From IMG/VR virus record IMGVR_UViG_2721755676_000001: 64,000 nt of DNA; one strand, given 5' to 3'. Source of the DNA: a virus. Lineage: Duplodnaviria; Heunggongvirae; Uroviricota; Caudoviricetes. This document shows positions 1,476-60,773 of the stretch, one piece after another (within the stretch, counting starts at the first letter, position 1; each line of letters opens with the position of its first letter). Position numbers and translations under genes: made by a program. The notes under the pieces are model-generated. The model worked only from the letters and a program-made list of their open reading frames with translations, was not told where the DNA came from and searched no databases.

Positions 1476-1572
1476 TGCTGCCAACTTACTGATTTAGTGT
1501 ATGATGGTGTTTTTGAGGTGCTCCAGTGGCTTCTGTTTCTATCAGCTGTCCCTCCTGTTCAGCTACTGACGG

Positions 1573-1605
1573 GGTGGTGCGTAACGGCAAAAGCACCACC
1601 TTTTT
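1573..1605 (+). terminator. intrinsic terminator, plus-strand only (GGTGGTGC..GCACCACC + TTTTT)
   Basis: 8-bp GC-rich stem followed by T5; ends 1 nt before the mrp stop codon. Confidence 0.55.
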
Positions 1606-1606
1606 A

Positions 1607-2707
1607 TCACACTGCGCGGAATGCGATTTCGCCAGGTATTACTTCACCTTGCCAATACATTTGGGCAGCAACGCGATCTGCGAGGTCACGATAAATAGCC
1701 GTAAATTCACTATCTGGACGACTAATAACGGTTGGTGTTCCGTTATCCAGATCTTCACGAAGAGAGATATGAAGTGGCATTTGGCCTAACAACTGCGTGT
1801 TGTATTTCTCGGCCAGTTTCTGTGCGCCACCGGTGCCAAAAATTGGCTCGTGATGACCGCAGTTACTGCAAATATGCACACTCATGTTTTCAACGATACC
1901 CAGTACCGGCACTTCGACTTTTTCGAACATCACAATGCCTTTCTTCGCATCGATCAGCGCGATGTCTTGCGGCGTAGTTACCACAACCGCACCAGTTACA
2001 GGAATGTTCTGCGCCAGCGTCAATTGAATATCACCAGTGCCCGGTGGCATATCGAGAACGAGATAGTCCAGATCAGGCCACAGTGTTTCCTGCAACATCT
2101 GCATCAGCGCCTTGCTGGCCATCGGTCCACGCCACACCATTGCATTGTCGTCGGTGACCAGATAACCAATAGAGTTGGTTGCCAGGCCATGAGACATGAT
2201 AGGTGCCATGTGAGTACCGTCCGGTGAGGTTGGACGTTGGTTTTCCGCGCCCAGCATGGTTGGAATTGATGGACCATAGATATCGGCATCCAAAATACCA
2301 ACTTTCGCACCTTCAGCAGCCAACGCCAGTGCCAGGTTTACCGCCGTGGAGGATTTACCCACGCCGCCCTTGCCTGAGCTGACGGCGATAATGTTCTTAA
2401 CGCCATTAATGCCTGGTTGGTTTTTGACGCGCTTAAGCGTGGCAATGTTGTACGACAGCTTCCAGTCAATAGCCTTTGCGCCAGTGATACGGAGCAGATC
2501 ACCACTACATTGCTCTTTCAGGTCTTCAAAAGGCTTATTCCACACGAAAGGCATGATTAGTTCGACATGCAGTGTGTCATCCATCAACGCAACATGGTGT
2601 AACGCTTTAAGCGTAGTCAGGTTGTGTTTCAGGGTTGGGTGCTGAAAATTAGCCAGCGTACCGGCTACCATTGCTCTCAGGGCATCCGGCGATTTGGACT
2701 CGCTCAT
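1607..2707 (-). CDS. apbC: iron-sulfur cluster carrier ATPase Mrp/ApbC
   Basis: 366 aa; P-loop [11 protein letters not shown]-terminal CSNCGHH; near-identical to enterobacterial Mrp as recalled. Confidence 0.95.
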
Positions 2708-2864
2708 CCCGTCTCCTTTATTTTAATTTGCGCAATTGTCGCCTTGTAGTGTACTCCAGCTACGACATTTAATCATTTATGAGAAATGCTGTTATCACAT
2801 GGCAGACATAAGGCCATTTTGTTACTATCAAGCCCCTTTTCACTACAAAGAAGTAATGCCTACT

Positions 2865-4898
2865 ATGACCCAAGTCGCGAAGAAAATTCTGGTGACGTGC
2901 GCGCTGCCGTACGCTAACGGCTCAATCCACCTCGGCCATATGCTGGAGCACATCCAGGCTGATGTCTGGGTTCGTTACCAGCGAATGCGCGGCCACGAGG
3001 TTAATTTCATCTGTGCCGACGATGCCCACGGTACGCCAATCATGCTGAAAGCACAGCAGCTTGGTATCACACCGGAACAGATGATTGGCGAAATGAGTCA
3101 GGAACATCAGACTGATTTCGCAGGCTTTAACATCAGCTATGACAACTATCACTCGACGCACAGCGAAGAGAACCGTCAGTTGTCCGAGCTTATCTATACT
3201 CGCCTGAAAGAGAACGGTTTTATTAAAAACCGCACCATCTCTCAGCTGTACGACCCGGAAAAAGGCATGTTCCTGCCGGACCGTTTTGTAAAAGGCACAT
3301 GCCCGAAATGTAAAGCGCCGGATCAATACGGCGATAACTGTGAAGTCTGCGGCGCGACATACAGCCCGACGGAACTGATCGAGCCGAAATCAGTGGTTTC
3401 TGGCGCTACACCGGTAATGCGTGATTCCGAACACTTCTTCTTTGATCTGCCTTCTTTCAGCGAAATGTTGCAGGCATGGACCCGCAGCGGTGCGTTGCAG
3501 GAGCAGGTGGCAAACAAAATGCAGGAGTGGTTTGAATCTGGCCTGCAACAGTGGGATATCTCCCGTGACGCACCTTACTTCGGTTTTGAAATTCCGAACG
3601 CACCGGGCAAATACTTCTACGTCTGGCTGGACGCGCCGATTGGCTACATGGGTTCCTTCAAGAATCTGTGCGACAAACGCGGCGACACTACCAGCTTCGA
3701 CGAATACTGGAAGAAAGACTCCACCGCCGAGCTGTACCACTTCATCGGCAAAGATATCGTTTACTTCCACAGCCTGTTCTGGCCTGCCATGCTGGAAGGC
3801 AGCAACTTCCGCAAGCCGACCAACCTGTTTGTTCACGGCTATGTGACGGTGAACGGCGCGAAGATGTCCAAGTCTCGCGGCACCTTTATTAAAGCCAGCA
3901 CCTGGCTGAATCATTTTGACGCCGACAGCCTGCGTTACTACTACACTGCGAAACTCTCTTCGCGCATTGATGATATCGATCTCAACCTGGAAGATTTCGT
4001 TCAGCGTGTGAATGCCGATATCGTTAACAAAGTGGTTAACCTGGCCTCCCGTAATGCAGGCTTTATCAACAAGCGTTTTGACGGCGTGCTGGCAAGCGAA
4101 CTGGCTGACCCGCAACTGTACAAAACCTTTACTGATGCCGCTGAAGTGATTGGCGAAGCATGGGAAAGCCGCGAATTTGGCAAAGCTATCCGTGAAATCA
4201 TGGCACTGGCTGACCTGGCTAACCGCTATGTTGATGAACAGGCTCCGTGGGTGGTGGCAAAGCAGGAAGGACGCGATGCCGATCTGCAGGCGATTTGCTC
4301 TATGGGCATTAACCTGTTCCGCGTGCTGATGACGTACCTGAAACCGGTACTGCCGAAACTGACTGAACGTGCAGAAGCATTCCTGAATACAGAACTGACC
4401 TGGGATGGTATCCAGCAACCGCTGCTGGGCCATAAAGTGAATCCGTTCAAGGCACTGTATAACCGCATCGATATGAAGCAGGTTGAAGCACTGGTGGAAG
4501 CATCCAAAGAAGAAGTGAAAGCCACAGCCGCACCGGTAACTGGCCCACTGGCTGACGACCCGATTCAGGAAACTATCACCTTTGACGACTTCGCCAAAGT
4601 TGACCTGCGCGTGGCGCTGATTGAAAACGCAGAGTTTGTAGAAGGTTCTGACAAACTGCTTCGCCTGACGCTGGATCTCGGTGGTGAAAAGCGTAATGTC
4701 TTCTCAGGCATCCGTTCCGCTTATCCAGATCCACAGGCACTGATTGGTCGTCACACCATTATGGTGGCTAACCTGGCACCACGTAAAATGCGCTTCGGTA
4801 TCTCTGAAGGCATGGTGATGGCTGCTGGCCCCGGCGGGAAAGATATCTTCCTGTTAAGCCCGGATGCTGGTGCTAAACCTGGCCACCAGGTTAAGTAA
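2865..4898 (+). CDS. metG: methionyl-tRNA synthetase
   Basis: 677 aa from the ATG at 2865 ([29 protein letters not shown] motif, KMSKS, zinc knuckle CPKC..C..C, C-terminal tRNA-binding domain); divergent from mrp as in E. coli-type chromosomes. Confidence 0.95.
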
Positions 4899-4981: not shown

Positions 4982-5046
4982 AAAACAATTTGTTTTCTAC
5001 CTTTTGTTGATTGAGATAATAAGTCATATAAGAAAACAAATTGTTT
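4982..5046 (+). promoter_or_regulatory. class I promoter/operator unit (two palindromes flanking an extended -10)
   Basis: AAAACAATTTGTTTT (4982-4996), tTGaGATAAT (5011-5020), AGAAAACAAATTGTTT (5031-5046) directly before SD AGGAG. Confidence 0.5.
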
Positions 5047-5594: not shown

Positions 5595-5993
5595 ATGAAA
5601 TATGCACCATTGGCACTAATATTTTTTGTGCTTTCTGCTAATGCCACGCCAGTTGAAGAGCCTAACACTATCGTGTACCCACGATGCATGAAAATAGATC
5701 CGGAAACACACAAGCAATTACCTGGTTACAATATTGTTATGGATATAGGGAATAAATTTAAAATCGTTTCCCCAAATGGGAATTCGGTGATATCCATCTC
5801 GCTTGCCCAAAGTGAAAAAGATAGGAACATGTTCGACGCCTCAGTCGGCGATGTTTACTTCTCTCGTTACCATGTTCAACCTGATGGGAACTTTCTATAC
5901 TCAGCCTGGAGTGAAAAGGCGAAAGTTACAGTGCTGTGTAATGGTAAAAGCGGTGAGCGGCATTACGTTGACCCTATTCATTTCGAGAACTGA
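5595..5993 (+). CDS. hypothetical secreted protein (132 aa)
   Basis: N-terminal signal-peptide-like segment MKYAPLALIFFVLSANA; SD GAGGGA upstream. Confidence 0.55.
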   Translation: MKYAPLALIFFVLSANATPVEEPNTIVYPRCMKIDPETHKQLPGYNIVMDIGNKFKIVSPNGNSVISISLAQSEKDRNMFDASVGDVYFSRYHVQPDGNFLYSAWSEKAKVTVLCNGKSGERHYVDPIHFEN

Positions 5994-6122
5994 CTACACA
6001 AGTAAACAAATCAATCAGTTGATAATGGCGGTCACAATTTGATTCTTTTCTATAAGAATCCGTTGATCGCCACTACTCTTCTTCCATACCCGCAATCACA
6101 TCCTTAAATATCAATAAGTTAT

Positions 6123-6150
6123 AGTTGTTTATACAATCAAGAAAACAACT
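6123..6150 (+). promoter_or_regulatory. class I-type unit with split palindrome around a TACAAT -10-like hexamer
   Basis: AGTTGTTT-aTACAAT-ca-AGAAAACAACT. Confidence 0.35.
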
Positions 6151-6860
6151 GAATAACAGATCAACGAAACATCAACGCTTTCACCCGATTTGGTCTAAAA
6201 AATTGACGTTTTCACACATCACTGCTTATACCCGTAACTCTACGCAGCAGACAGCGCCACAGCGTCCAATTTTCACCACAGACGACCCAACACACTACCA
6301 ACAAAAACACACGCTCAAAATCGCTCCCGTTGCGTTACACAACCATATAAACAACTTATTTTCAGGCATAACAAAACAACTAAATAACACAAATGCCATT
6401 TCCAAAAACAACCAACCTCTTTATGGCAGGCTACCGAAAAGACCCACCTCTTCTCCCCAGGCTACCGGACAACCAACCTAACTTTCACAGGCAATCCGAA
6501 AACATTCATACGCGCGATACCCACGACACGCCATTCCCCAAACAGCGAAGAACACCAGAATCACTGAAACCCCAACGAAGCCTGTAACCGCAAGGTTTCT
6601 CTCAATCCCAAAAGACACGAAACACAACAATCACGGGAAATGCCATTACCCAATACACGAATAACTACAAAAGCCCTTCACGCACTCCAGACAAACAACT
6701 CAAACACAATAACGAAAGGAATCGCCCACCTGCCATTACTCCATACACGGAGAAGAACAATCACCAAAACGACGAGAACACCCCATAGAAGAACCACCGC
6801 AAAACGAACGAAACCACATACACCGACAGAGAGAACAACACACCCAATTCACCAACAGAA
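6150..6860. other. A+C-rich (G/T-depleted) non-coding tract with degenerate internal repeats
   Basis: A+C about 75% on the plus strand (45% A, 32% C in 6601-6660); repeated TGCCATTnCnCnATACACG (6642, 6731); ORFs here are low-complexity artefacts. Confidence 0.6.
6416..6510. repeat. three tandem ~31-bp repeats with core CAGGCTACCG
   Basis: Cores at about 6427, 6458, 6488; homologous array at 9549-9650. Confidence 0.6.
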
Positions 6861-6976
6861 ATAGTTGCCGTATAGAACATTCTGGAAGGAGTGAGCATTA
6901 ACGCCTATAGAGAGGTTGAGACAGATAAAACACAACATGTATAGCGAAGAAGCCAGGTATGTATAAGTGGGGAGGG

Positions 6977-7000
6977 AAGGAGGGGTGTCGCCTCCTTTTT
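6977..7000 (+). terminator. possible intrinsic terminator (AAGGAGG..CCTCCTT + TTT)
   Basis: 7-bp stem with 7-nt loop and short T-run; would end a transcript from the 6130 promoter. Confidence 0.35.
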
Positions 7001-7063
7001 CGTATTTATTCAACTCCTGATTTTATCCCCCGTAACACCCCTACGGTCAGCCTTCGGTCCATA

Positions 7064-7198
7064 CAGGGAAAAGGTTGCATCCCGCTACAGAAACGGCTGG
7101 GTTGCCTTCGGGGAACGGCTGGAGGTTTTCAGGGAAACGGTCGAGTTGCCTGTGTGGATTTCGGGAAAAGGCTCGATGCCGGTTCAGGAACGGCGGCG
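7064..7198. repeat. six direct repeats of GGGAAACGGCT-like core, 21-32 bp period (iteron-like)
   Basis: Copies at 7064, 7088, 7109, 7130, 7162, 7185; related array at 10247-10326. Confidence 0.65.
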
Positions 7199-7507
7199 TA
7201 CCGGCATAGCGAGAGGGAGAGTTGCGGCTACCCACCTGTAATGTGCGGGAAGAAGAGAGGCGCTCACGTAGGCGGACTTACTTACCGCTGGATTCCCTCT
7301 GAATGCCCAGCTACAGCGTAATTGTGCCAGACAGCCAACGGGTCACAATCGATTTCAGTAGGTTTTTGGGGAGAGGATTACTCTGCCACCAGCCACTTTC
7401 GGCCACTAAATCAGAATAATGTAAAAAGTGTACTCGGTACTGAACCTGAAAACTCACTGCCAAAACCACATTCACCGGAATAAAATCCTTTTTCGCCTGT
7501 GCGTTAT

Positions 7508-7542
7508 TGCGATAATAACACCATCAAGAAAACATGTTGTTT
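7508..7542 (+). promoter_or_regulatory. class I promoter/operator unit
   Basis: tTGcGATAAT (7507-7516), 10 nt spacer, AGAAAACATGTTGTTT (7527-7542), then SD AAGGA. Confidence 0.45.
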
Positions 7543-7554
7543 AAGGATTGCTTT

Positions 7555-7884
7555 ATGTTTACAAATATCGACATCAACCAAATCAAGAAATTAACTCAAA
7601 AAGAGTTTGATCAGTTTTATGAGTTAGAAGGTTGGTCTTCCACTCTGATCAATTCAAGATGGGTGCTGGAACTGATGACTCGTGATGACGCACCTGCTTT
7701 GATGATCAGCGACATGGGTGAAGATGCTGACTTTATGGATATGAGCGAATTTTGTGTGGACACATACAACCGCAGCCAGAAGTACTACTTCACATGCGAT
7801 GGCGAAAATGACGTGATTTCTAAGGTCTATCTTCACCTCGTCCAGCATTGGGACGTTCAGGAGTTTCTTGAAGTATTCGAGTAA
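7555..7884 (+). CDS. hypothetical acidic protein (109 aa)
   Basis: ATG at 7555 downstream of operator and SD; the listed 7534 start lies inside the operator. Confidence 0.5.
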   Translation: MFTNIDINQIKKLTQKEFDQFYELEGWSSTLINSRWVLELMTRDDAPALMISDMGEDADFMDMSEFCVDTYNRSQKYYFTCDGENDVISKVYLHLVQHWDVQEFLEVFE

Positions 7885-7990
7885 CCCCAACCAAAGCCAG
7901 CATTGCTGGCTTAATTTCTCTATAGCCGCAGGGAAGAACCTGCATATCGCTCATGCGCCTGATCAATATGCTTTGTAGCCGTTTTCTTAC

Positions 7991-8026
7991 TGGTATTATT
8001 TACGCCATTGAGAAAACAAGTTGTTT
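7991..8026 (+). promoter_or_regulatory. class I promoter/operator unit
   Basis: TGgTATTAT -10-like, then AGAAAACAAGTTGTTT (8011-8026), SD GGAG. Confidence 0.4.
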
Positions 8027-8037
8027 ACGGAGTTGTG

Positions 8038-8349
8038 ATGAAAAAATCATTGGTTCTTGGTCTGGACAAAGACCAGAAGAGAAAAGAGAAGCCTGCGCTG
8101 GTTGCTCAATTAACTTTGCTGGACATCGTTGCCAATGGGACCTCTATTCGTCTGTTCCGTGAAACAGCGGTGTCTTTCGATAAAAACACCTTTACTCGTT
8201 ATGTAATGAATGTTCGTCGCCAGCGTGGAAAAGGCTGGGTGGCATTTCAAAGAATGTGGCCGGAACATCAGCTCGAACTGGCTTTGATGGAAGTTAACCG
8301 CGTGGCCCAGCAAGAGATTCAGAGAGCATCAGTGATGGCAATAGCCTGA
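8038..8349 (+). CDS. hypothetical protein (103 aa)
   Basis: ATG at 8038 after operator and SD. Confidence 0.5.
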   Translation: MKKSLVLGLDKDQKRKEKPALVAQLTLLDIVANGTSIRLFRETAVSFDKNTFTRYVMNVRRQRGKGWVAFQRMWPEHQLELALMEVNRVAQQEIQRASVMAIA

Positions 8350-8383
8350 TAATGTGCAAGTGGTAATTAGTCGACCGTACGAC

Positions 8384-8413
8384 AGCCCCGCCATCCTTAC
8401 GGGGCTTTTTTTG
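8384..8413 (+). terminator. intrinsic terminator
   Basis: AGCCCCG..CGGGGCT followed by T7. Confidence 0.7.
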
Positions 8414-8476
8414 TATTGTAAGTACATACTTACGATCATAGAATAGAAAAATAACCAATACACTACGGAGAGTGAA

Positions 8477-8872
8477 ATGACCGTTAAACGCGAAAAACTG
8501 ACAGTTGATGTTTACTATGCCTCTGAAACCGCCGAAGGTAAGAATGTGGCAAAAATCACCGTTGTTACGTACAACACCGAAACTGGTGCCGAAGTCCAGG
8601 CCAGTACGATCGTGCGTAAAGGTGATGCCTCCGGCGGCGAGTACGCGACTCAATACCAGTCCATTCTCGATGCAACTAACCCGCTGCTGCTGAAAATCGA
8701 GAACTACTTCCGCCAGGTTGATGAAGAGGTGTTTGAAACCATGATGAATATGGTTAACACCGTATTCGCCTCCAGCCTGAATACCAACACCACCTGGATT
8801 GGCCAGTATGGTCTGCGCATTACCTCCGGCATTCCTGCTGACACCTTAATCCCTGAAAGCGTATTCGCTTAA
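8477..8872 (+). CDS. hypothetical protein (131 aa)
   Basis: SD GGAGAG; class II palindrome GTAAGTAcaTACTTAC upstream (about 8420-8436). Confidence 0.5.
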   Translation: MTVKREKLTVDVYYASETAEGKNVAKITVVTYNTETGAEVQASTIVRKGDASGGEYATQYQSILDATNPLLLKIENYFRQVDEEVFETMMNMVNTVFASSLNTNTTWIGQYGLRITSGIPADTLIPESVFA

Positions 8873-8881
8873 TCCTCTTTG

Positions 8882-8909
8882 AATGGCGCGTAAACCGCGC
8901 CATTTTCTT
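8882..8909 (+). terminator. intrinsic terminator
   Basis: AATGGCGCG taaac CGCGCCATT followed by TTTCTT. Confidence 0.7.
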
Positions 8910-8914
8910 ATGCC

Positions 8915-8955
8915 CGATAACAATTTGTTTTCTGCCTTATCTGATTTGTGAAAAT
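8915..8955 (+). promoter_or_regulatory. class I promoter/operator unit
   Basis: AACAATTTGTTTTCT plus TGtGAAAAT; near-identical to the unit at 1364-1397. Confidence 0.45.
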
Positions 8956-8989
8956 GATTTCACTGAAGCAACTTAATAAGGAAACCATC

Positions 8990-9364
8990 ATGGGGCTTGA
9001 TATCTACATCGAGACGCAGCCAAAAAACGATCTGAATAACGAGGCATCCAGAAAGCAGGTTGCTTACTTCCGTAAGTTCAATGCGCTCGTTGGGTGGATG
9101 GAGCGCAACGTAGGTGAAGTCGAAAATTGTGAGCTTTTAGAATTAACGATGAATGACATTTGTCTTCTGAAAGCTCATTTGATGCACATAAACGAAAGCA
9201 ATTGCGAAGAGTACTTGCCTACTCGGGAAGGTTTTTTCTTCGGCAGTCAGGAGTACGACGAAGGTTACTGGCATGACGTGGATAAGCTGAAAAAACTTGT
9301 GGAAGACCTGATCAGGAACCACGACTTTCACAATAACAGACTGACCTTCTGCGCCTGGTGGTAA
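8990..9364 (+). CDS. hypothetical protein (124 aa from internal ATG)
   Basis: ATG at 8990 with SD AAGGAAA; upstream in-frame starts overlap the -10 element. Confidence 0.5.
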   Translation: MGLDIYIETQPKNDLNNEASRKQVAYFRKFNALVGWMERNVGEVENCELLELTMNDICLLKAHLMHINESNCEEYLPTREGFFFGSQEYDEGYWHDVDKLKKLVEDLIRNHDFHNNRLTFCAWW

Positions 9365-9366
9365 AT

Positions 9367-9510
9367 ATGGGCGATTTCAAGAAACGCCTGAAGGAAAGAG
9401 CCGAGATGATCAGAAAGCAAAACGCCTCTTCTGTCATCAGATACGCAAGGCAGTTTAGTCGCAACAACAAATCAGTTGAGGAAAAGATCCTTAGCGTAAT
9501 CGGTCGATAA
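9367..9510 (+). CDS. hypothetical small basic protein (47 aa)
   Basis: ATG 2 nt after the preceding stop; not in the supplied ORF track (below length cut-off). Confidence 0.3.
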   Translation: MGDFKKRLKERAEMIRKQNASSVIRYARQFSRNNKSVEEKILSVIGR

Positions 9511-9548
9511 TTATTAAGGCCATCAGCATTGGTGGTCTTAAATGACCA

Positions 9549-9650
9549 TCCTGTTTCCCTCAGGCTAATAACACCAACCTCTTACCTCCAGGCAACCGAC
9601 AAACCCACCTGTTCCCTTCCGGCTACCGCAACTTTCCACTTTGACGCCTT
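9549..9650. repeat. three tandem ~32-bp repeats (CCTgTTnCCnTCAGGCTAnC core)
   Basis: Homologous to the array at 6416-6510. Confidence 0.55.
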
Positions 9651-9661
9651 ATTCGTACAAC

Positions 9662-9693
9662 GATAATTAACACCAACAAGAAAACAATTTGTT
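9662..9693 (+). promoter_or_regulatory. class I promoter/operator unit
   Basis: GATAAT, about 10 nt spacer, AAGAAAACAATTTGTT, SD AAGGA. Confidence 0.4.
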
Positions 9694-9714
9694 ATTTACG
9701 ATAAGGAATTAATC

Positions 9715-10197
9715 ATGAATTTTATCGCTACTGTAAACGCACCCGCACATGGCAATATCGCTGTAACGTTCTCTGACATTGAAAAACGAGTACTTGGTGC
9801 ATGGCGCGACAATGAGACGGTAGAACTGTCAGCACAAGAAAAATGCATTATTGCACGCGACATCATTGGCAATCGTCGTTACTCGCGGGTATTTGAGAAA
9901 GCATATGTGGTAAATTCTGGATTCGGAACGTTCGTCTTTCCGGTGCGCTCCGGGCGATTCTGCCAGTCCAAGCTGATTGAGTTCGCTACGCAGATTTCTG
10001 TCTGGATTAAAACTCAATCGTCGTTCAAATTTTCCGACGATGAAGCAGTATCGCAGGGGATGCGAATCGCCAACAATGCAATTAAATGCAAAAACATTAC
10101 GTATACCGCTGGCGTTGATACATGGAAACTGTTTTGCGCTAACTTTATGCTGAATGTATACACAAGCAACCGCATCCACATCCTTGATGGCGTGTAA
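9715..10197 (+). CDS. hypothetical protein (160 aa) flanked by repeat arrays
   Basis: ORF with SD; no recognisable domain. Confidence 0.5.
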   Translation: MNFIATVNAPAHGNIAVTFSDIEKRVLGAWRDNETVELSAQEKCIIARDIIGNRRYSRVFEKAYVVNSGFGTFVFPVRSGRFCQSKLIEFATQISVWIKTQSSFKFSDDEAVSQGMRIANNAIKCKNITYTAGVDTWKLFCANFMLNVYTSNRIHILDGV

Positions 10198-10206
10198 CTG
10201 AGAAGA

Positions 10207-10229
10207 GGGCCAGAAACGGCCCTTTCTCT
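10207..10229 (+). terminator. intrinsic terminator
   Basis: GGGCC agaaac GGCCC followed by TTTCTCT. Confidence 0.65.
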
Positions 10230-10246
10230 ATAGCCACCAGCTGCCG

Positions 10247-10326
10247 CAGGGAAATTTTCAGAAACGGCGAGGAACGTATTCATGAGCCGACGGGGAACGG
10301 CCAGGATTTTTTCGGGAAACGGCTGC
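10247..10326. repeat. direct repeats of GGRAAACGGC core (4 copies)
   Basis: Copies at about 10210, 10259, 10291, 10313; ATCAC/GTGAT-rich segment follows at about 10440-10500. Confidence 0.55.
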
Positions 10327-12254: not shown

Positions 12255-12773
12255 TTAAAACGGAAGGATTCGTTCAACCCAATCGAAGAAAATAAGTATT
12301 TTTCTACCGTCTTCCAACTTAAGTGTGACTAGACAGGCGTCAACGCCATCTGACGTTCCCTCAATTTCGCGACCGTCTGCCATGTAGACCCTTATAGATT
12401 TGCCGTTTTGGTAAGCCTGACGACATATCTTAAAAAAGTCACGACGTGATGGCTGATTAACCATCTGTTCATTGTTTAGCGTTAGTCGACCTGTGAATGA
12501 AGTGTCAACCTCTTCTATGCCCGACTCAATTGTGCTAATGCGCTCAAGAGGGAGCCTTATACGATTTGTGTTGCTAAGCGGATCTGGTGTGAGGTTCAGC
12601 TTATTTCTTGCGCTCAATAGCCCGTAGACATACATGCAAAATACTTGGCCGTCTTCGAGAGTGACTCTTACAGGAAATTTTGCACTCCGCCAGAAGAGCA
12701 AGGTGCGCTCAGCATGTTCGTAGTCTCGCGGCCAGACTTCAGCCGGTATGCCGTAGGTGATGTCTTTAACCAT
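12255..12773 (-). CDS. hypothetical protein (172 aa), AT-rich
   Basis: Isolated minus-strand ORF with downstream hairpin AACCGG..CCGGTT. Confidence 0.5.
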   Translation of the reverse strand: MVKDITYGIPAEVWPRDYEHAERTLLFWRSAKFPVRVTLEDGQVFCMYVYGLLSARNKLNLTPDPLSNTNRIRLPLERISTIESGIEEVDTSFTGRLTLNNEQMVNQPSRRDFFKICRQAYQNGKSIRVYMADGREIEGTSDGVDACLVTLKLEDGRKILIFFDWVERILPF

Positions 12774-42343: not shown

Positions 42344-45300
42344 ATGTGGTACAGGGAAGGTACTATCACATTTACACAGGGCAGCAATACTCTGGTTGGG
42401 GCAGGGACAGCCTGGAACGTAACAGCTAATGGTGTGTTGCCGGGGATGATCGTCATTGGCCCCGACAATAAGCTGTATGAGATCAAGCGCGTAACCAGTG
42501 ATACGAACATTGTTCTCTCAGAACCTTATACCGGCGAAACTCAGTCTGAAGTTCCGTGCCGAATCATTACGACCTATGAAGGCGACTTAACACAGTTTAG
42601 CGCGCGCTTTACTGCGCTAATGTCGCGTATGTCGGCTGATTCCAAGTCCATACGCAGTTGGTTGACTGCGCTGGATGAGGTGACAATCGAGCGTGAAGAC
42701 GGTACAGAAGTGACCGTTAAGCCGCTAATGCAGATCGCCAACGAGCACAACGAAAACGTTGAGTGGTATAAAAATAACACTGACGCGATTGATGCTGCTG
42801 GCGACAAAGCTCGTGAGGCGGCGGCCAGTGCTGCCGCAGCAGCAAAAAGCGCCAATGCCGCTGGAGAAAAAGCCTCTCAAGCGTCTCAAAGTGCATCCGC
42901 TGCGGCATCCTCACAAAGTGCCGCAAGTGCGAGTGCAACTGCTGCGAAAAAATCTGAAACGAATGCTGCAGCGTCACAAAAATCTGCAGCCACTTCTGCA
43001 TCCACCGCGACCACGAAGGCGTCAGAAGCTGCCACCTCAGCCCGGGATGCGGCGGCCTCAAAAGAGGCAGCGAAATCATCAGAAACGAACGCATCCTCAA
43101 GCGCCAGTAGTGCCGCTTCCTCGGCAACGGCGGCAGGAAATTCCGCGAAGGCGGCAAAAACGTCCGAGACGAACGCCAGGTCTTCTGAAACGGCAGCGGG
43201 ACAGAGCGCCTCAGCTGCGGCAGGCTCAAAAACAGCGGCTGCGTCGTCTGCCAGTGCCGCGTCAACAAGTGCCGGGCAGGCCTCAGCCAGTGCCACCGCC
43301 GCCGGAAAATCGGCAGAAAGTGCCGCATCGTCTGCTTCAACAGCCACAACGAAGGCTGGCGAAGCCACTGAACAGGCCAGCGCAGCAGCGAGGTCTGCTT
43401 CCGCAGCGAAGACATCCGAAACGAACGCGAAAGCGTCGGAAACCAGCGCAGAATCCTCAAAAACGGCTGCCGCATCGTCCGCCAGTTCGGCGGCGTCATC
43501 GGCATCATCGGCGTCTGCTTCAAAAGATGAGGCGACCAGACAGGCGTCAGCAGCGAAGGGCAGCGCCACGACGGCATCCACGAAAGCAACAGAGGCGGCA
43601 GGCAGTGCGACGGCAGCATCTCAGAGCAAAACTGCTGCTGAATCCGCTGCGACTCGTGCGGAAGCTGCTGCTGATCGTGCTGAAGAGATTGCCGGTGCAG
43701 TTGCGATGGAAGACGCAAGCCTTACAACTAAAGGTGTTGTGAAACTTAGCAGTGCTGTCGACAGCACCAGTGAATCGCTGGCCGCAACGCCAAAAGCAGT
43801 TAAAGCAGCCAATGACAATGCGAATAGCAGGGTGCCATCTAACCGAAAAGTTAACGGTAAAGCACTGACTGCGGATATCAAATTAACGCCGAAAGATATT
43901 GGTACTTTAAATTCAGTAACGATGTCTTTCTCTGGCGGGGCAGGGTGGTTCAAACTGGCTACGGTTACCATGCCACAAGCGAGTTCCATCGTTTACATCG
44001 CATTGATTGGTGGCGCTGGTTACAACGTCGGCTCCCCACATCAGGCAGGCATTTCAGAACTGGTTCTACGAGCAGGCAATGGAAACCCCAAAGGGATTAC
44101 AGGTGCTTTGTGGAAGCGTACAGCTGTCGGATTAACGAATTTCGCCTGGATCAACACATCCGGCGATACATATGATATTTACGTTGAGATTGGCAATTAT
44201 GCGACTCGTGTAAATATCCATTGGGATTGTACTGCAAATGCGACAGTTTCTATTTATACCTCGCCAACATATTCAGCGAGTAAGCCTTCCAGCGTTACCG
44301 ATGGTGTTGTTTATACGATGTATAGCACACATCAGAAACCGACGCCGTTAGATATTGGAGCACTGCCAACAACCGGAGGAACAGTTTCAGGTCCGTTGTC
44401 TGTTACAGGTGGATTAACTGGTTCATTGAATGGTAATGCAAGTACAGCCACGAAATTGCAGACGGCAAGATCTATCGGTGGAGTTGTTTTCGACGGTTCT
44501 GCAAATATTAACCTTCCAGGTGTAAACACTACGGGTAATCAGAACACCACTGGTAATGCTGCAACTGCTACAAAACTTCAGACTGCAAGAAAAATATCCG
44601 GTGTTCCATTTGATGGTTCTACTGATATCACTTTAACCGCTGCGCATGTTGCCGCTTTCGCAAGAAGGGCAACAGGGTCATATGCGGATGCTGATGGTGG
44701 CGTGCCGTGGAATGCTGAATCTGGTGCTTACAATGTAACTAGAACAGGCGACAGTTATATTCTTGCCAACTTTTATACCGGTGTAGGTAGTTGCCGGACC
44801 CTGCAGATGAAGGCGCATTACAGAAATGGAGGTCTGTTCTACCGTTCCTCAAGAGATGGCTATGGTTTTGAAAGTGGTTGGGAGCAGGTTTACACGACTG
44901 GATTTATGCCTCAGCCGGCTGATATAAACGCGCCAACCGCTGCCGCTGGATGGTTAAATAGTGGTAACGGAACGGCATTTACGACTGCTCAATTTATAAC
45001 TTGGCTAAATAATCAGGGGGCATTTACAAACAAACATTGGATCGCACGGTGCTCATGGGCTTACGCCAACAATAATTATATAGACGACACTGGTTGCGGT
45101 AGGATCGATCTATCTGGTTCCGTGATTGAGGTGTTTAGTAATAAGGCAACAAGCCACTACACTATTCGTGTTACAACGACAACAACATCGGGTCATGGTG
45201 GTGTTAACAATGCGGAATTTATTTATGTGTACAATGGAAGTGATTATGCACCAGGCTGGCGTCGTTCTTATAACACTAGAAACAAACCAACAGCTTCTGA

Positions 45301-60526: not shown

Positions 60527-60601
60527 GATGGTGTAGCTCAGCGGTAGAGCAGTTGGCTGTTAACCAACTGGTCGGTGGTTCGAATCCACCCACCATCGCC
60601 A
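60527..60601 (+). tRNA. tRNA-Asn (anticodon GTT)
   Basis: Canonical cloverleaf with T-loop TTCGAAT and 3' CCA; sequence differs from chromosomal E. coli tRNA-Asn as recalled. Confidence 0.9.
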
Positions 60602-60606
60602 ATTTA

Positions 60607-60693
60607 GGGGAGTTAGTCCGTAGGGGCAGCGGAGTAGACTGTAAATCTACTGTCATGGCGACTCGGGTGGTTCGACTCCATCACTCCCCACCA
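60607..60693 (+). tRNA. tRNA-Tyr (anticodon GTA)
   Basis: Class II tRNA with long variable arm, anticodon loop CTGTAAA, 3' CCA. Confidence 0.85.
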
Positions 60694-60697
60694 AATT

Positions 60698-60773
60698 GCC
60701 GGTTTAGCTCAGTTGGTAGAGCGCCTGCCTTGTAAGCAGGATGTCAGCGGTTCGAGTCCGCTAACCGGCACCA
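60698..60773 (+). tRNA. tRNA-Thr (anticodon TGT)
   Basis: Perfect cloverleaf with anticodon loop CTTGTAA, T-loop TTCGAGT, 3' CCA. Confidence 0.9.

Follow-up and report, generated by a model that had tools for sequence, protein, structure and literature searches.

The closest described counterparts of the locus considered here are the Rho-loading (rut) regions and leaders (lambda tR1 rutA/rutB; rho, mgtA and pgaA), the sponge RNAs (CsrB/CsrC/RsmZ for CsrA; CrcZ for Hfq/Crc), replication origins (P1 oriR/incA, lambda ori, ColE1 RNA II, T4 oriF/oriG) and the Omega-type CAA-rich leaders (tobacco mosaic virus Omega) and CA-rich enhancers. With these we compare a non-coding, A+C-rich tract on the plus strand at positions 6240-6865 of IMG/VR record IMGVR_UViG_2721755676_000001, a Caudoviricetes sequence analyzed as a single stretch of 64,000 nucleotides (hereinafter the window). 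We tentatively favor the reading that the tract is a Rho-loading, untranslatable leader, which would insulate or attenuate transcription at the junction between the variable cargo genes and the conserved backbone of its parent element and for which we predict a firewall role.

Like the rut regions, the RNA predicted from the tract is C-rich, G-poor, unstructured and untranslated; the tract likewise runs in the direction of the genes behind it, with hairpins after it at which release could take place. Judged by its sequence, it would qualify as a rut region of six to eight times the usual length, with conserved islands, direct repeats and few indels as additional features. It further differs from these regions in that the drop in transcription seen in its relative Cyrano (see below) lies upstream of the tract, and in that its link to Rho is a prediction. 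With the sponge RNAs it shares several copies of a motif in a non-coding, RNA-like setting; however, GGA, AANAANAA and ARN occur in it at the level expected from composition, no Rfam match is found even at E <= 10, its repeat (GCCATTACyCmATACACGGAGAAGAAC), unlike the sponge motifs, has no known binder, and the known sponges are abundant RNAs, whereas the region of the tract is silent in lysogens. It resembles the origins in being a large non-coding region with same-orientation repeats, a neighboring ~22-bp array, upstream promoter-like elements, and an RNase HI and replisome encoded by the same element; but it lacks an adjacent initiator gene, an AT-rich unwinding element and a DnaA box, its own repeats are unphased, only the neighboring GGGAAAmGG array (7066-7193) shows ~22-bp phasing, and the true iterons lie elsewhere and are unrelated. 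The Omega-type leaders and CA-rich enhancers are, like the tract, A/C-rich, G-poor and unstructured, and Omega-type leaders are ~70 nt long and sit directly before the start codon; between the tract and the next gene there are instead ~670 nt and a terminator-like hairpin, and that gene has a promoter element of its own. By their defining features the tract does not belong with the sponge RNAs, the iteron origins or the structured RNAs, and there is a small chance that it represents something new in kind.

A conserved, A+C-rich tract without folding or coding capacity

Window positions 6100-7450 are 100% identical to the Escherichia coli plasmid pSLy3 (NZ_CP015915.1; circular, 114,472 bp; window position 1 corresponds to position 100,567 of this record) and ~96% identical to the Escherichia phages Cyrano and CMS-2020a, with the Salmonella phage SSU5 matching part of the same interval; on these grounds we identify the source of the window as an SSU5-type phage-plasmid. 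The tract is enclosed by a 1.54-kb gap (5994-7533) free of any annotation by PGAP (the NCBI pipeline), the largest feature-free gap of pSLy3. This is bounded on the left by a lineage-specific cargo gene (5595-5993) and on the right by the first gene (7534-7884) of a block of five small conserved genes (7534-10197), and the tract has the same orientation as the flanking genes.

The extreme A+C strand skew reported in the initial annotation of this DNA stands up to sliding-window statistics. The 600-nt segment with the highest A+C content in the 64 kb begins at 6258 (74.2%, against a mean of 50.1% and a standard deviation of 3.2%; z ~7.5), and the two highest non-overlapping segments of this size both fall within the tract. 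The plus-strand A+C content is 74.0% over 6240-6860 and 72.1% over 6150-6860 (A 39.5%, C 32.6%, G 12.5%, T 15.3%); across 6205-6880, windows of 78 nt contain 28-40% C and 4-17% G, and the three longest plus-strand runs of C>G in the entire window are all situated inside 6193-6777. The tract is not AT-rich, with a GC content of ~45%, compared to 41-45% across the gap. It contains no Shine-Dalgarno sequences, palindromes or -10 or -35 hexamers on either strand, and few start codons, their number being somewhat below the expectation from composition (marginally so in most lineages). We also observed that stop trinucleotides (TAA, TAG, TGA; any frame) number 11-14 in 6240-6865 against 23-27 expected in 7 of the 7 lineages tested, and that over the same interval the dinucleotides TA and GT are under-represented in all lineages tested, and TG in most of them, with TT being enriched; this pattern of stop and dinucleotide depletion is in part due to a TAC-rich repeat motif.

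Since A and C cannot pair with each other, a plus-strand RNA of this composition would be unfoldable. With a predicted minimum free energy of -66 kcal/mol per 600 nt (-0.11 per nt), it is less structured than any other 600 nt in the window (z +5.75 relative to 39 other windows with a mean of -176 and a standard deviation of 19), whereas the minus-strand RNA is ordinary (-151 kcal/mol, z +1.3). Comparison of the tract with shuffled versions of itself reveals no additional structure (z -1.6).

The tract is non-coding. The plus-strand open reading frames (ORFs) at 6125-6481, 6393-6587 and 6640-6864 have no match among the PHROG families and are kept neither in position nor in frame among relatives; long frames are open in all three plus-strand phases because T is rare, and their limits and phases vary between lineages. 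The most widely open of them (window-equivalent 6630-6872) is devoid of ATG, GTG and TTG in SSU5, as read from the sequence. In a 405-nt ungapped block aligned between SSU5-type and Klebsiella-type sequences (111 differences), the synonymous share of changed codons is only 8-24% in each of the six frames; substitutions per codon position (0.55, 0.57, 0.64) display no periodicity, and the alignment includes frame-breaking indels of 1, 2, 8 and 23 nt. The genes called here by some annotators (CYRAN_103, SSU5_108 and several Klebsiella hypotheticals) disagree in strand, frame and position. The initial annotation had likewise seen no credible ORF and had proposed that a conserved protein encoded by the homologous region of relatives would speak against its view; PHROG families, codon periodicity, synonymous excess and PGAP genes all gave the same negative answer, and no conserved frame was found in the relatives.

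A search for similar tracts in related genomes recovered both the tract and its bias in every lineage of the SSU5 group, the A+C content holding at 68-74% despite an identity of 61-67% between lineages. Columns that have changed are still 64% A+C, compared to 74% for invariant columns, which indicates that the composition itself is being maintained. Nucleotide diversity of the tract within the E. coli lineage (0.012-0.04) is at the level of the neighboring genes. Between SSU5-type and Klebsiella-type sequences, moreover, the tract measures 510 versus 512 nt with 70% identity and two 1-nt indels, whereas the next 175 nt beyond it, at a similar identity, have accumulated 7-8. Judging from these alignments, the tract is conserved and under selection for its composition across the SSU5 group; being also non-coding and strand-biased, it is, as had been suspected, not ordinary intergenic DNA.

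The region was recovered by blastn in 839 PLSDB plasmids, mainly from Klebsiella (431), Escherichia (224), Enterobacter (90) and Salmonella (49, including pHCM2), with Citrobacter and Cronobacter also represented, as well as in 12 phage records, none of which gives it a functional annotation, and in Kluyvera and Buttiauxella genomes. Among 5426 complete E. coli genomes, 246 (4.5%) carry the tract, always on plasmids, and 240 carry the adjacent backbone genes; from these counts, the tract is essentially never lost. A neighboring family of 131-aa proteins is restricted to the group (37 clusters, all Enterobacteriaceae-type, with 4 extra loci in GTDB genomes). The tract is unannotated in pSLy3 and in all 246 E. 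coli plasmid records, a few other records bearing inconsistent 'hypothetical protein' calls. No description of the region was found in the literature searched on SSU5, pHCM2, Cyrano, Klebsiella p2 and oriT, or in Rfam and the annotated records examined. As a separate observation, a 175-kb non-phage Klebsiella plasmid (Kp116-unnamed1, L011) has a truncated copy of the gap at 2890-3620, extending from its left end (block A, below) to the equivalent of ~6720, where homology stops at an unrelated junction, possibly the end of an insertion sequence; the same partial match recurs in at least five large plasmids of Klebsiella.

Repeats, islands and flanking elements of the gap

The features of the gap, all on the plus strand, are as follows:

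6018-6075 (+): block A, a nested inverted repeat (GGCGGTCA...TGATCGCC around TATAAG), invariant in 13 sequences
6118-6150 (+): partial promoter/operator element (..AAGAAAACAA..), the 'class I' element of the initial annotation, with the left palindrome half only
6158-6235 (+): conserved block (80-93% column conservation) with TCAACG/GTTGAC boxes and a weak promoter-like TTGACG-17-TTATAC
6240-6865 (+): the A+C-rich, G/T-poor non-coding tract (74% A+C, z 7.5), structure-free and present in all lineages
6325-6368 (+): degenerate second copy of the promoter/operator element (~6345), AAACAACTTATTTT in pSLy3, where relatives keep the palindrome AAACAAGTTGTTTT
6406-6497 (+): three tandem ~31-nt units (ACCCACCTCTT..CAGGCTACCG; repeat family D2), with 87-95% conservation
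6529-6558 (+): degenerate copy of the ~27-nt repeat given above (repeat family D1)
6641-6670 (+): copy of the ~27-nt repeat
6726-6865 (+): best conserved island of the tract, including the last ~27-nt repeat copy (6731-6760), with 80-95% column conservation
6961-7001 (+): block with TATAAG, a purine/G-run and a hairpin with a T-run, terminator-like in the pSLy3 lineage and found by a terminator scan
7066-7193 (+): six GGGAAAmGG motifs ~22 bp apart, outside the A+C tract and in the same gene-free gap
7486-7548 (+): full promoter/operator element of the first downstream gene (7534-7884), with 95% conservation at 7506-7525

Within the tract, the degenerate internal repeats flagged in the initial annotation are genuine: TGCCATTAC..ATACACG is found at positions 6641 and 6731 and, in weaker form, at 6529 and ~6394. 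Across lineages we found 4-6 direct copies of this ~27-nt repeat; the SSU5-type sequences have six in the same orientation (GCCATTACyCmATAyrCGGAGAAsAAC). The GCCATT repeats, spaced 142, 90, 45, 41 and 52 bp, show no helical phasing. The island at 6726-6865 is the sole part of the tract that megablast detects in SSU5. Another island, at 6426-6465 (87-95% columns), falls in the 31-nt units, which the tandem-repeat program TRF does not call, as they are too diverged. This highly conserved repeat block, the most conserved of the tract, is also the site of the crossover (6400-6450) in a natural recombinant, p1919D62-2, which resembles pSLy3 on its left side and SSU5/Enterobacter sequences on its right. 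The 15-nt AATGCCATTACCCAA (window 6638-6652) is perfectly complementary to positions 75559-75573 of the pSLy3 record (E 0.07), a segment that includes the TAATG at which two small genes beside the repB iterons overlap by stop and start codon.

Block A constitutes the exact left edge of the conserved backbone: the cargo to its left differs from plasmid to plasmid, and within-lineage diversity drops from ~0.5 to ~0.05 exactly at this element. Its hairpin (-19.9 kcal/mol, z -3.8) is likely a terminator for the upstream cargo genes. The left block of the gap as a whole is marked by invariant inverted repeats and repeated short boxes in which the sequence, rather than the pairing, is kept. The initial annotation had placed a class I-type promoter at its 6123-6150 element; what stands of this is a recurrent motif, AAGAAAACAA, found 5 times where 0.35 occurrences are expected and located immediately before four gene starts. 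The complete copies, those of the genes at 5030, 7526, 9678 and 50818, contain the palindrome AAACAAnTTGTTT and share the order of a GATAAT-like -10, then AAGAAAACAAnTTGTTT, then the ribosome-binding site. One of these copies (50818) stands before the parA-like partition operon, two before small backbone genes and one before a DUF1380 gene, which suggests that all of these are under one common regulator. The copy at 6139, on the other hand, retains only the left half of the palindrome, and a sigma-70 consensus scan of both strands over 5900-7450 returned no promoter, the block at 6158-6235 likewise not being called. The second copy at ~6345 was delineated at columns ~455-480 of our alignment A1 by comparison with the element at 7500-7545.

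To the right of the tract, a variable purine-rich linker leads to the block at 6961-7001, in which a 10-bp stem followed by TTTTT (6974-7001; -19.6 kcal/mol, z -3.7) corresponds to the possible terminator proposed earlier at 6977-7000; its equivalent in SSU5 is weak (z +0.6), and the hairpin is retained with one-sided changes only. In the G-rich part beyond it we obtained no support for RNA structure (z +1.55; compensatory change in 4 of 42 predicted pairs), and in a further set of predicted pairs 3 of 24 had any compensatory change. The GGGAAAmGG motifs of this part form the first of two arrays (7066-7193 and 10212-10322) flanking the five small genes, the second lying just after the gene block. 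The arrays are paralogous and conserved in SSU5, Kluyvera and a metagenome-assembled genome, and they look like protein-binding sites; 5 of the 6 motifs in the first contain a CsrA-like GGA.

Elsewhere in the window, three consecutive tRNA genes lie at 60527-60770, and the interval 42701-43400 in the tail-gene region has the second most unusual composition (GC 0.587, AT skew 0.336). The cargo at 1479-4898 includes a host-like apbC/mrp (minus strand) and a complete metG (methionyl-tRNA synthetase, plus strand), a divergent arrangement that we take to be that of the E. coli chromosome.

Proposed Rho loading and the competing readings

Per-gene RNA-seq values are available for Cyrano from a supplementary table of a study of strain LF82 (PMC9928086). 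In these, CYRAN_103, which covers window ~6125-6481 and with it the promoter-like elements and the first third of the tract, attains a log2(FPKM+5) of 2.32-4.27, that is 0-14 FPKM (fragments per kilobase per million), in five conditions spanning LB, culture medium and macrophages (PMC9928086). In the same samples CYRAN_102, directly upstream, reaches up to ~590 FPKM, CYRAN_105, the first downstream gene, up to ~200 FPKM, and CYRAN_104 in the G-rich part 1-20 FPKM (PMC9928086). Cyrano transcription falls ~40- to 300-fold across block A. From this profile we conclude that cargo-gene transcription ends at or before block A, that the promoter-like elements before the tract are inactive in lysogens, and that lysogens do not contain the tract as an abundant RNA. 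The idea of a constitutively expressed long non-coding RNA (lncRNA), as the initial annotation could be understood, does not agree with these values.

The retention of the bias on one strand at variable sites points to a function exerted at a single strand, be it RNA or opened DNA, and argues against binding of a protein to the double strand. We accordingly regard an untranslatable Rho-loading leader as the best, if still tentative, account, under which the tract would be a cis-acting element operating at the level of single-stranded RNA. A rightward transcript would be free of structure, C-rich, G-poor and devoid of translation, and might thereby constitute an exceptionally long Rho-loading (rut-like) RNA. 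Transcripts that start in the cargo genes, or at the weak copies of the early-type promoter at the 5′ end, would not be translated; Rho would capture them and halt transcription ahead of the small genes that begin at 7534, with passage presumably needing an antiterminating condition in the lytic cycle. Rut sites comprise at least ~80 nt of C-rich, G-poor, weakly structured and untranslated RNA, and the tract offers just such a sequence. It is combination of this type of RNA with the position at the boundary of variable cargo and conserved backbone, and with the bracketing hairpins, that of block A before the tract and the other after it, that leads us to prefer a Rho-dependent firewall or attenuator.

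Several points weigh against this. In Cyrano the drop in transcription precedes window ~6125, occurring at block A, so that the tract is not needed to stop the upstream transcript; no nascent RNA is seen in the portion of the tract covered by CYRAN_103, and the sigma-70 scan of 5900-7450 identified no consensus promoter to feed it. Natural rut regions are ~80-100 nt long, not 600-700, and YC dimers are not enriched in the tract beyond the expectation from composition. A function of composition alone would not account for the conserved islands (80-95%), for a ~27-nt repeat present in 4-6 copies or for the scarcity of indels, the latter two pointing to an added sequence-specific partner. Islands, repeats and fixed length together favor a trans-acting RNA of the lytic phase or a DNA-level assembly over a composition-only function.

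Of these, the DNA-level alternative appears somewhat less probable than Rho loading and is its nearest competitor. It posits that the 1.5-kb gap is a site of nucleoprotein assembly, either a lytic origin or a regulatory looping complex, in which the tract would be a spacer of fixed length free of promoters and palindromes, or an unfolded strand for helicase loading; in a variant, the origin would be primed by an R-loop using the element's own RNase HI. This would suit the largest feature-free gap of the plasmid, a tract nearly free of indels between flanks that are not, the inverted repeats and short boxes of the left block, the ~22-bp spacing of the six GGGAAAmGG motifs with their paralogous array at 10212-10322, and the silence of the tract in lysogens. 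It would also suit the gene content, pSLy3 encoding DnaE, a DnaB-like helicase, a primase, a ligase and RNase HI, with no lytic origin annotated in pSLy3 or found in the literature searched. However, binding to the double strand leaves the avoidance of G and T on one strand at variable positions unexplained, the ~45% GC of the tract is not that of an AT-rich element, no DnaA box (TTWTNCACA) occurs at 5900-7600, and the GCCATT repeats lack helical phasing. No initiator gene lies next to the tract; the plasmid origin, with repB flanked by at least 15 iterons of ACCGCTGACAGCATAC (record 75.8-77.6 kb; L014:25826-27578), is ~30 kb away and unrelated. R-loop-prone sequences usually yield G-rich RNA, whereas the rightward RNA of an R-loop here would be G-poor. 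GC-skew mapping of an origin is uninformative in this element because the skew tracks gene orientation.

Less probable again, in our estimate, is a trans-acting lncRNA made in the lytic phase from the early-type promoter copies, which would display 4-6 ~27-nt and three 31-nt single-stranded sites and so sequester or scaffold an RNA-binding factor; candidates would be Rho, another host single-stranded-RNA-binding protein, or the element's own FljA-family repressor. The multiple same-orientation copies of a long motif in an unfoldable context, the promoter/operator-like elements upstream and the terminator-like hairpin downstream accord with such an RNA, and silence in lysogens is compatible with a repressed early promoter. 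A conserved PF03614 (FljA) protein is encoded 5.4 kb downstream in the lineages that reach that far, and the 9-mer ACCCAATAC is common to the fliC 5′ untranslated region and the tract motif; but a match of this kind is expected by chance (E = 4), and the similarity goes no further. No transcript is known, the nearest promoter copy in the pSLy3 lineage lacks half its palindrome, and the Cyrano tract is at 5-7 FPKM while the homologous downstream promoter is active (~200 FPKM). The notion of a sponge RNA put forward in the initial annotation is weakened by the motif counts: Hfq and CsrA motifs are not enriched, the pSLy3 tract having GGA 4 times against 3.8 expected, AANAANAA 3 against 2.5 and (ARN)4 once against 1.4, with similar values in four relatives, and GGA per kb is rarer in the tract than in the window. 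Rfam yielded no match to the window at the gathering threshold and nothing relevant at E <= 10 for 5950-7600. Neither the E. coli chromosome nor the rest of the plasmid has significant complementarity to the tract (best 15 nt, E 0.07).

The downstream PF03614 protein is of separate interest: it is a full-length member (window 12255-12773, minus strand; E 1e-68) of the family of FljA, the post-transcriptional repressor that binds fliC mRNA, and every lineage of the SSU5 group with a locus long enough to include it has kept it. On the strength of this family membership it may switch off host flagellin or act as an RNA-binding repressor for the element's own control.

About as probable as the trans-acting lncRNA, in our estimate, is a structure-free single-strand platform deployed solely in the lytic cycle. 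As RNA this would be a ~0.65-kb molecule trapping a host factor through its 4-6 copies of the 27-nt motif, Rho being the obvious candidate, since its capture would lift Rho silencing of the phage genome; as DNA it would be the strand displaced at a lytic origin primed by transcription, with RNase HI and the replisome coming from the element itself. Finally, a decayed or unusual protein-coding region (e.g., for a low-complexity T/P/H/K/N/Q-rich protein) or functionless filler is very improbable: the frames open in all three plus-strand phases, the halved number of stop trinucleotides, the few indels and the ORFs called by some annotators might suggest it, but the calls are mutually inconsistent, the best conserved frame has no start codon in SSU5, the codon-position, synonymous-change, PHROG and frame-breaking indel results above tell against coding, and a within-lineage diversity equal to that of neighboring genes in a tract that is never lost tells against filler.

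A number of more specific candidates were rejected. Decoys for Hfq, CsrA or MazF (ACA) are not supported by any k-mer above the expectation from composition. A plasmid origin or copy-control site is discounted by the distance of 30 kb to repB and its 15 iterons, none of whose sequence is found here. A partition site would be remote from the parA-like operon (record 37 kb, 43 kb from the tract), with which the region has in common only the AAGAAAACAAnTTGTTT operator-like element. Against a pac or cos site, the terminase genes lie ~13 kb downstream, and it is there that the SSU5 and Cyrano records begin. An antisense regulator finds no chromosomal place at E <= 10 in E. coli, its best plasmid match being the 15-nt start-codon junction (E 0.07). 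The CCCACCTCTT units are 76% complementary in pSLy3 to the purine block at 6966-6985; by eye, this long-range pairing shows no covariation between lineages. Resemblances to RfaH ops, lambda boxA/boxB, KOPS, Chi, sigma-54 and sigma-28 sites are partial, seen by eye and not conserved across lineages. For a mobile insertion with direct repeats (block A and the block at 6961) there is no empty site, and the sole truncated copy, in the Klebsiella plasmid Kp116-unnamed1, is cut at an unrelated junction. ToxI-like type III antitoxin repeats, which are ~36-nt tandem RNA repeats directly ahead of the toxin gene, could be seen in the three diverged 31-nt units, but no ORF follows for ~1 kb.

Significance for SSU5-type phage-plasmids

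Phage-plasmids of the SSU5 type are present in 4.5% of complete E. coli genomes and account for hundreds of plasmids from Klebsiella, Enterobacter and Salmonella, pHCM2 of S. Typhi among them, and they carry resistance and virulence cargo; we found no description of their lysis-lysogeny control or lytic origin in the literature and database records searched. The tract marks the exact junction between their variable cargo and conserved backbone and is as conserved as the neighboring genes. It also illustrates a design principle, in that the use of two non-pairing bases gives an RNA or DNA without folding, translation starts, promoters or palindromes. If it is a Rho-dependent firewall, it would explain how these elements tolerate constant turnover of cargo without mis-expression of lytic genes, and would provide a natural design for a transcriptional insulator. 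If it instead traps Rho or another protein, or serves as an origin, it would offer a new handle on induction and copy-number control in a clinically relevant plasmid family; and as a lytic platform it would constitute a new type of phage control element, present in hundreds of clinical Enterobacteriaceae plasmids.

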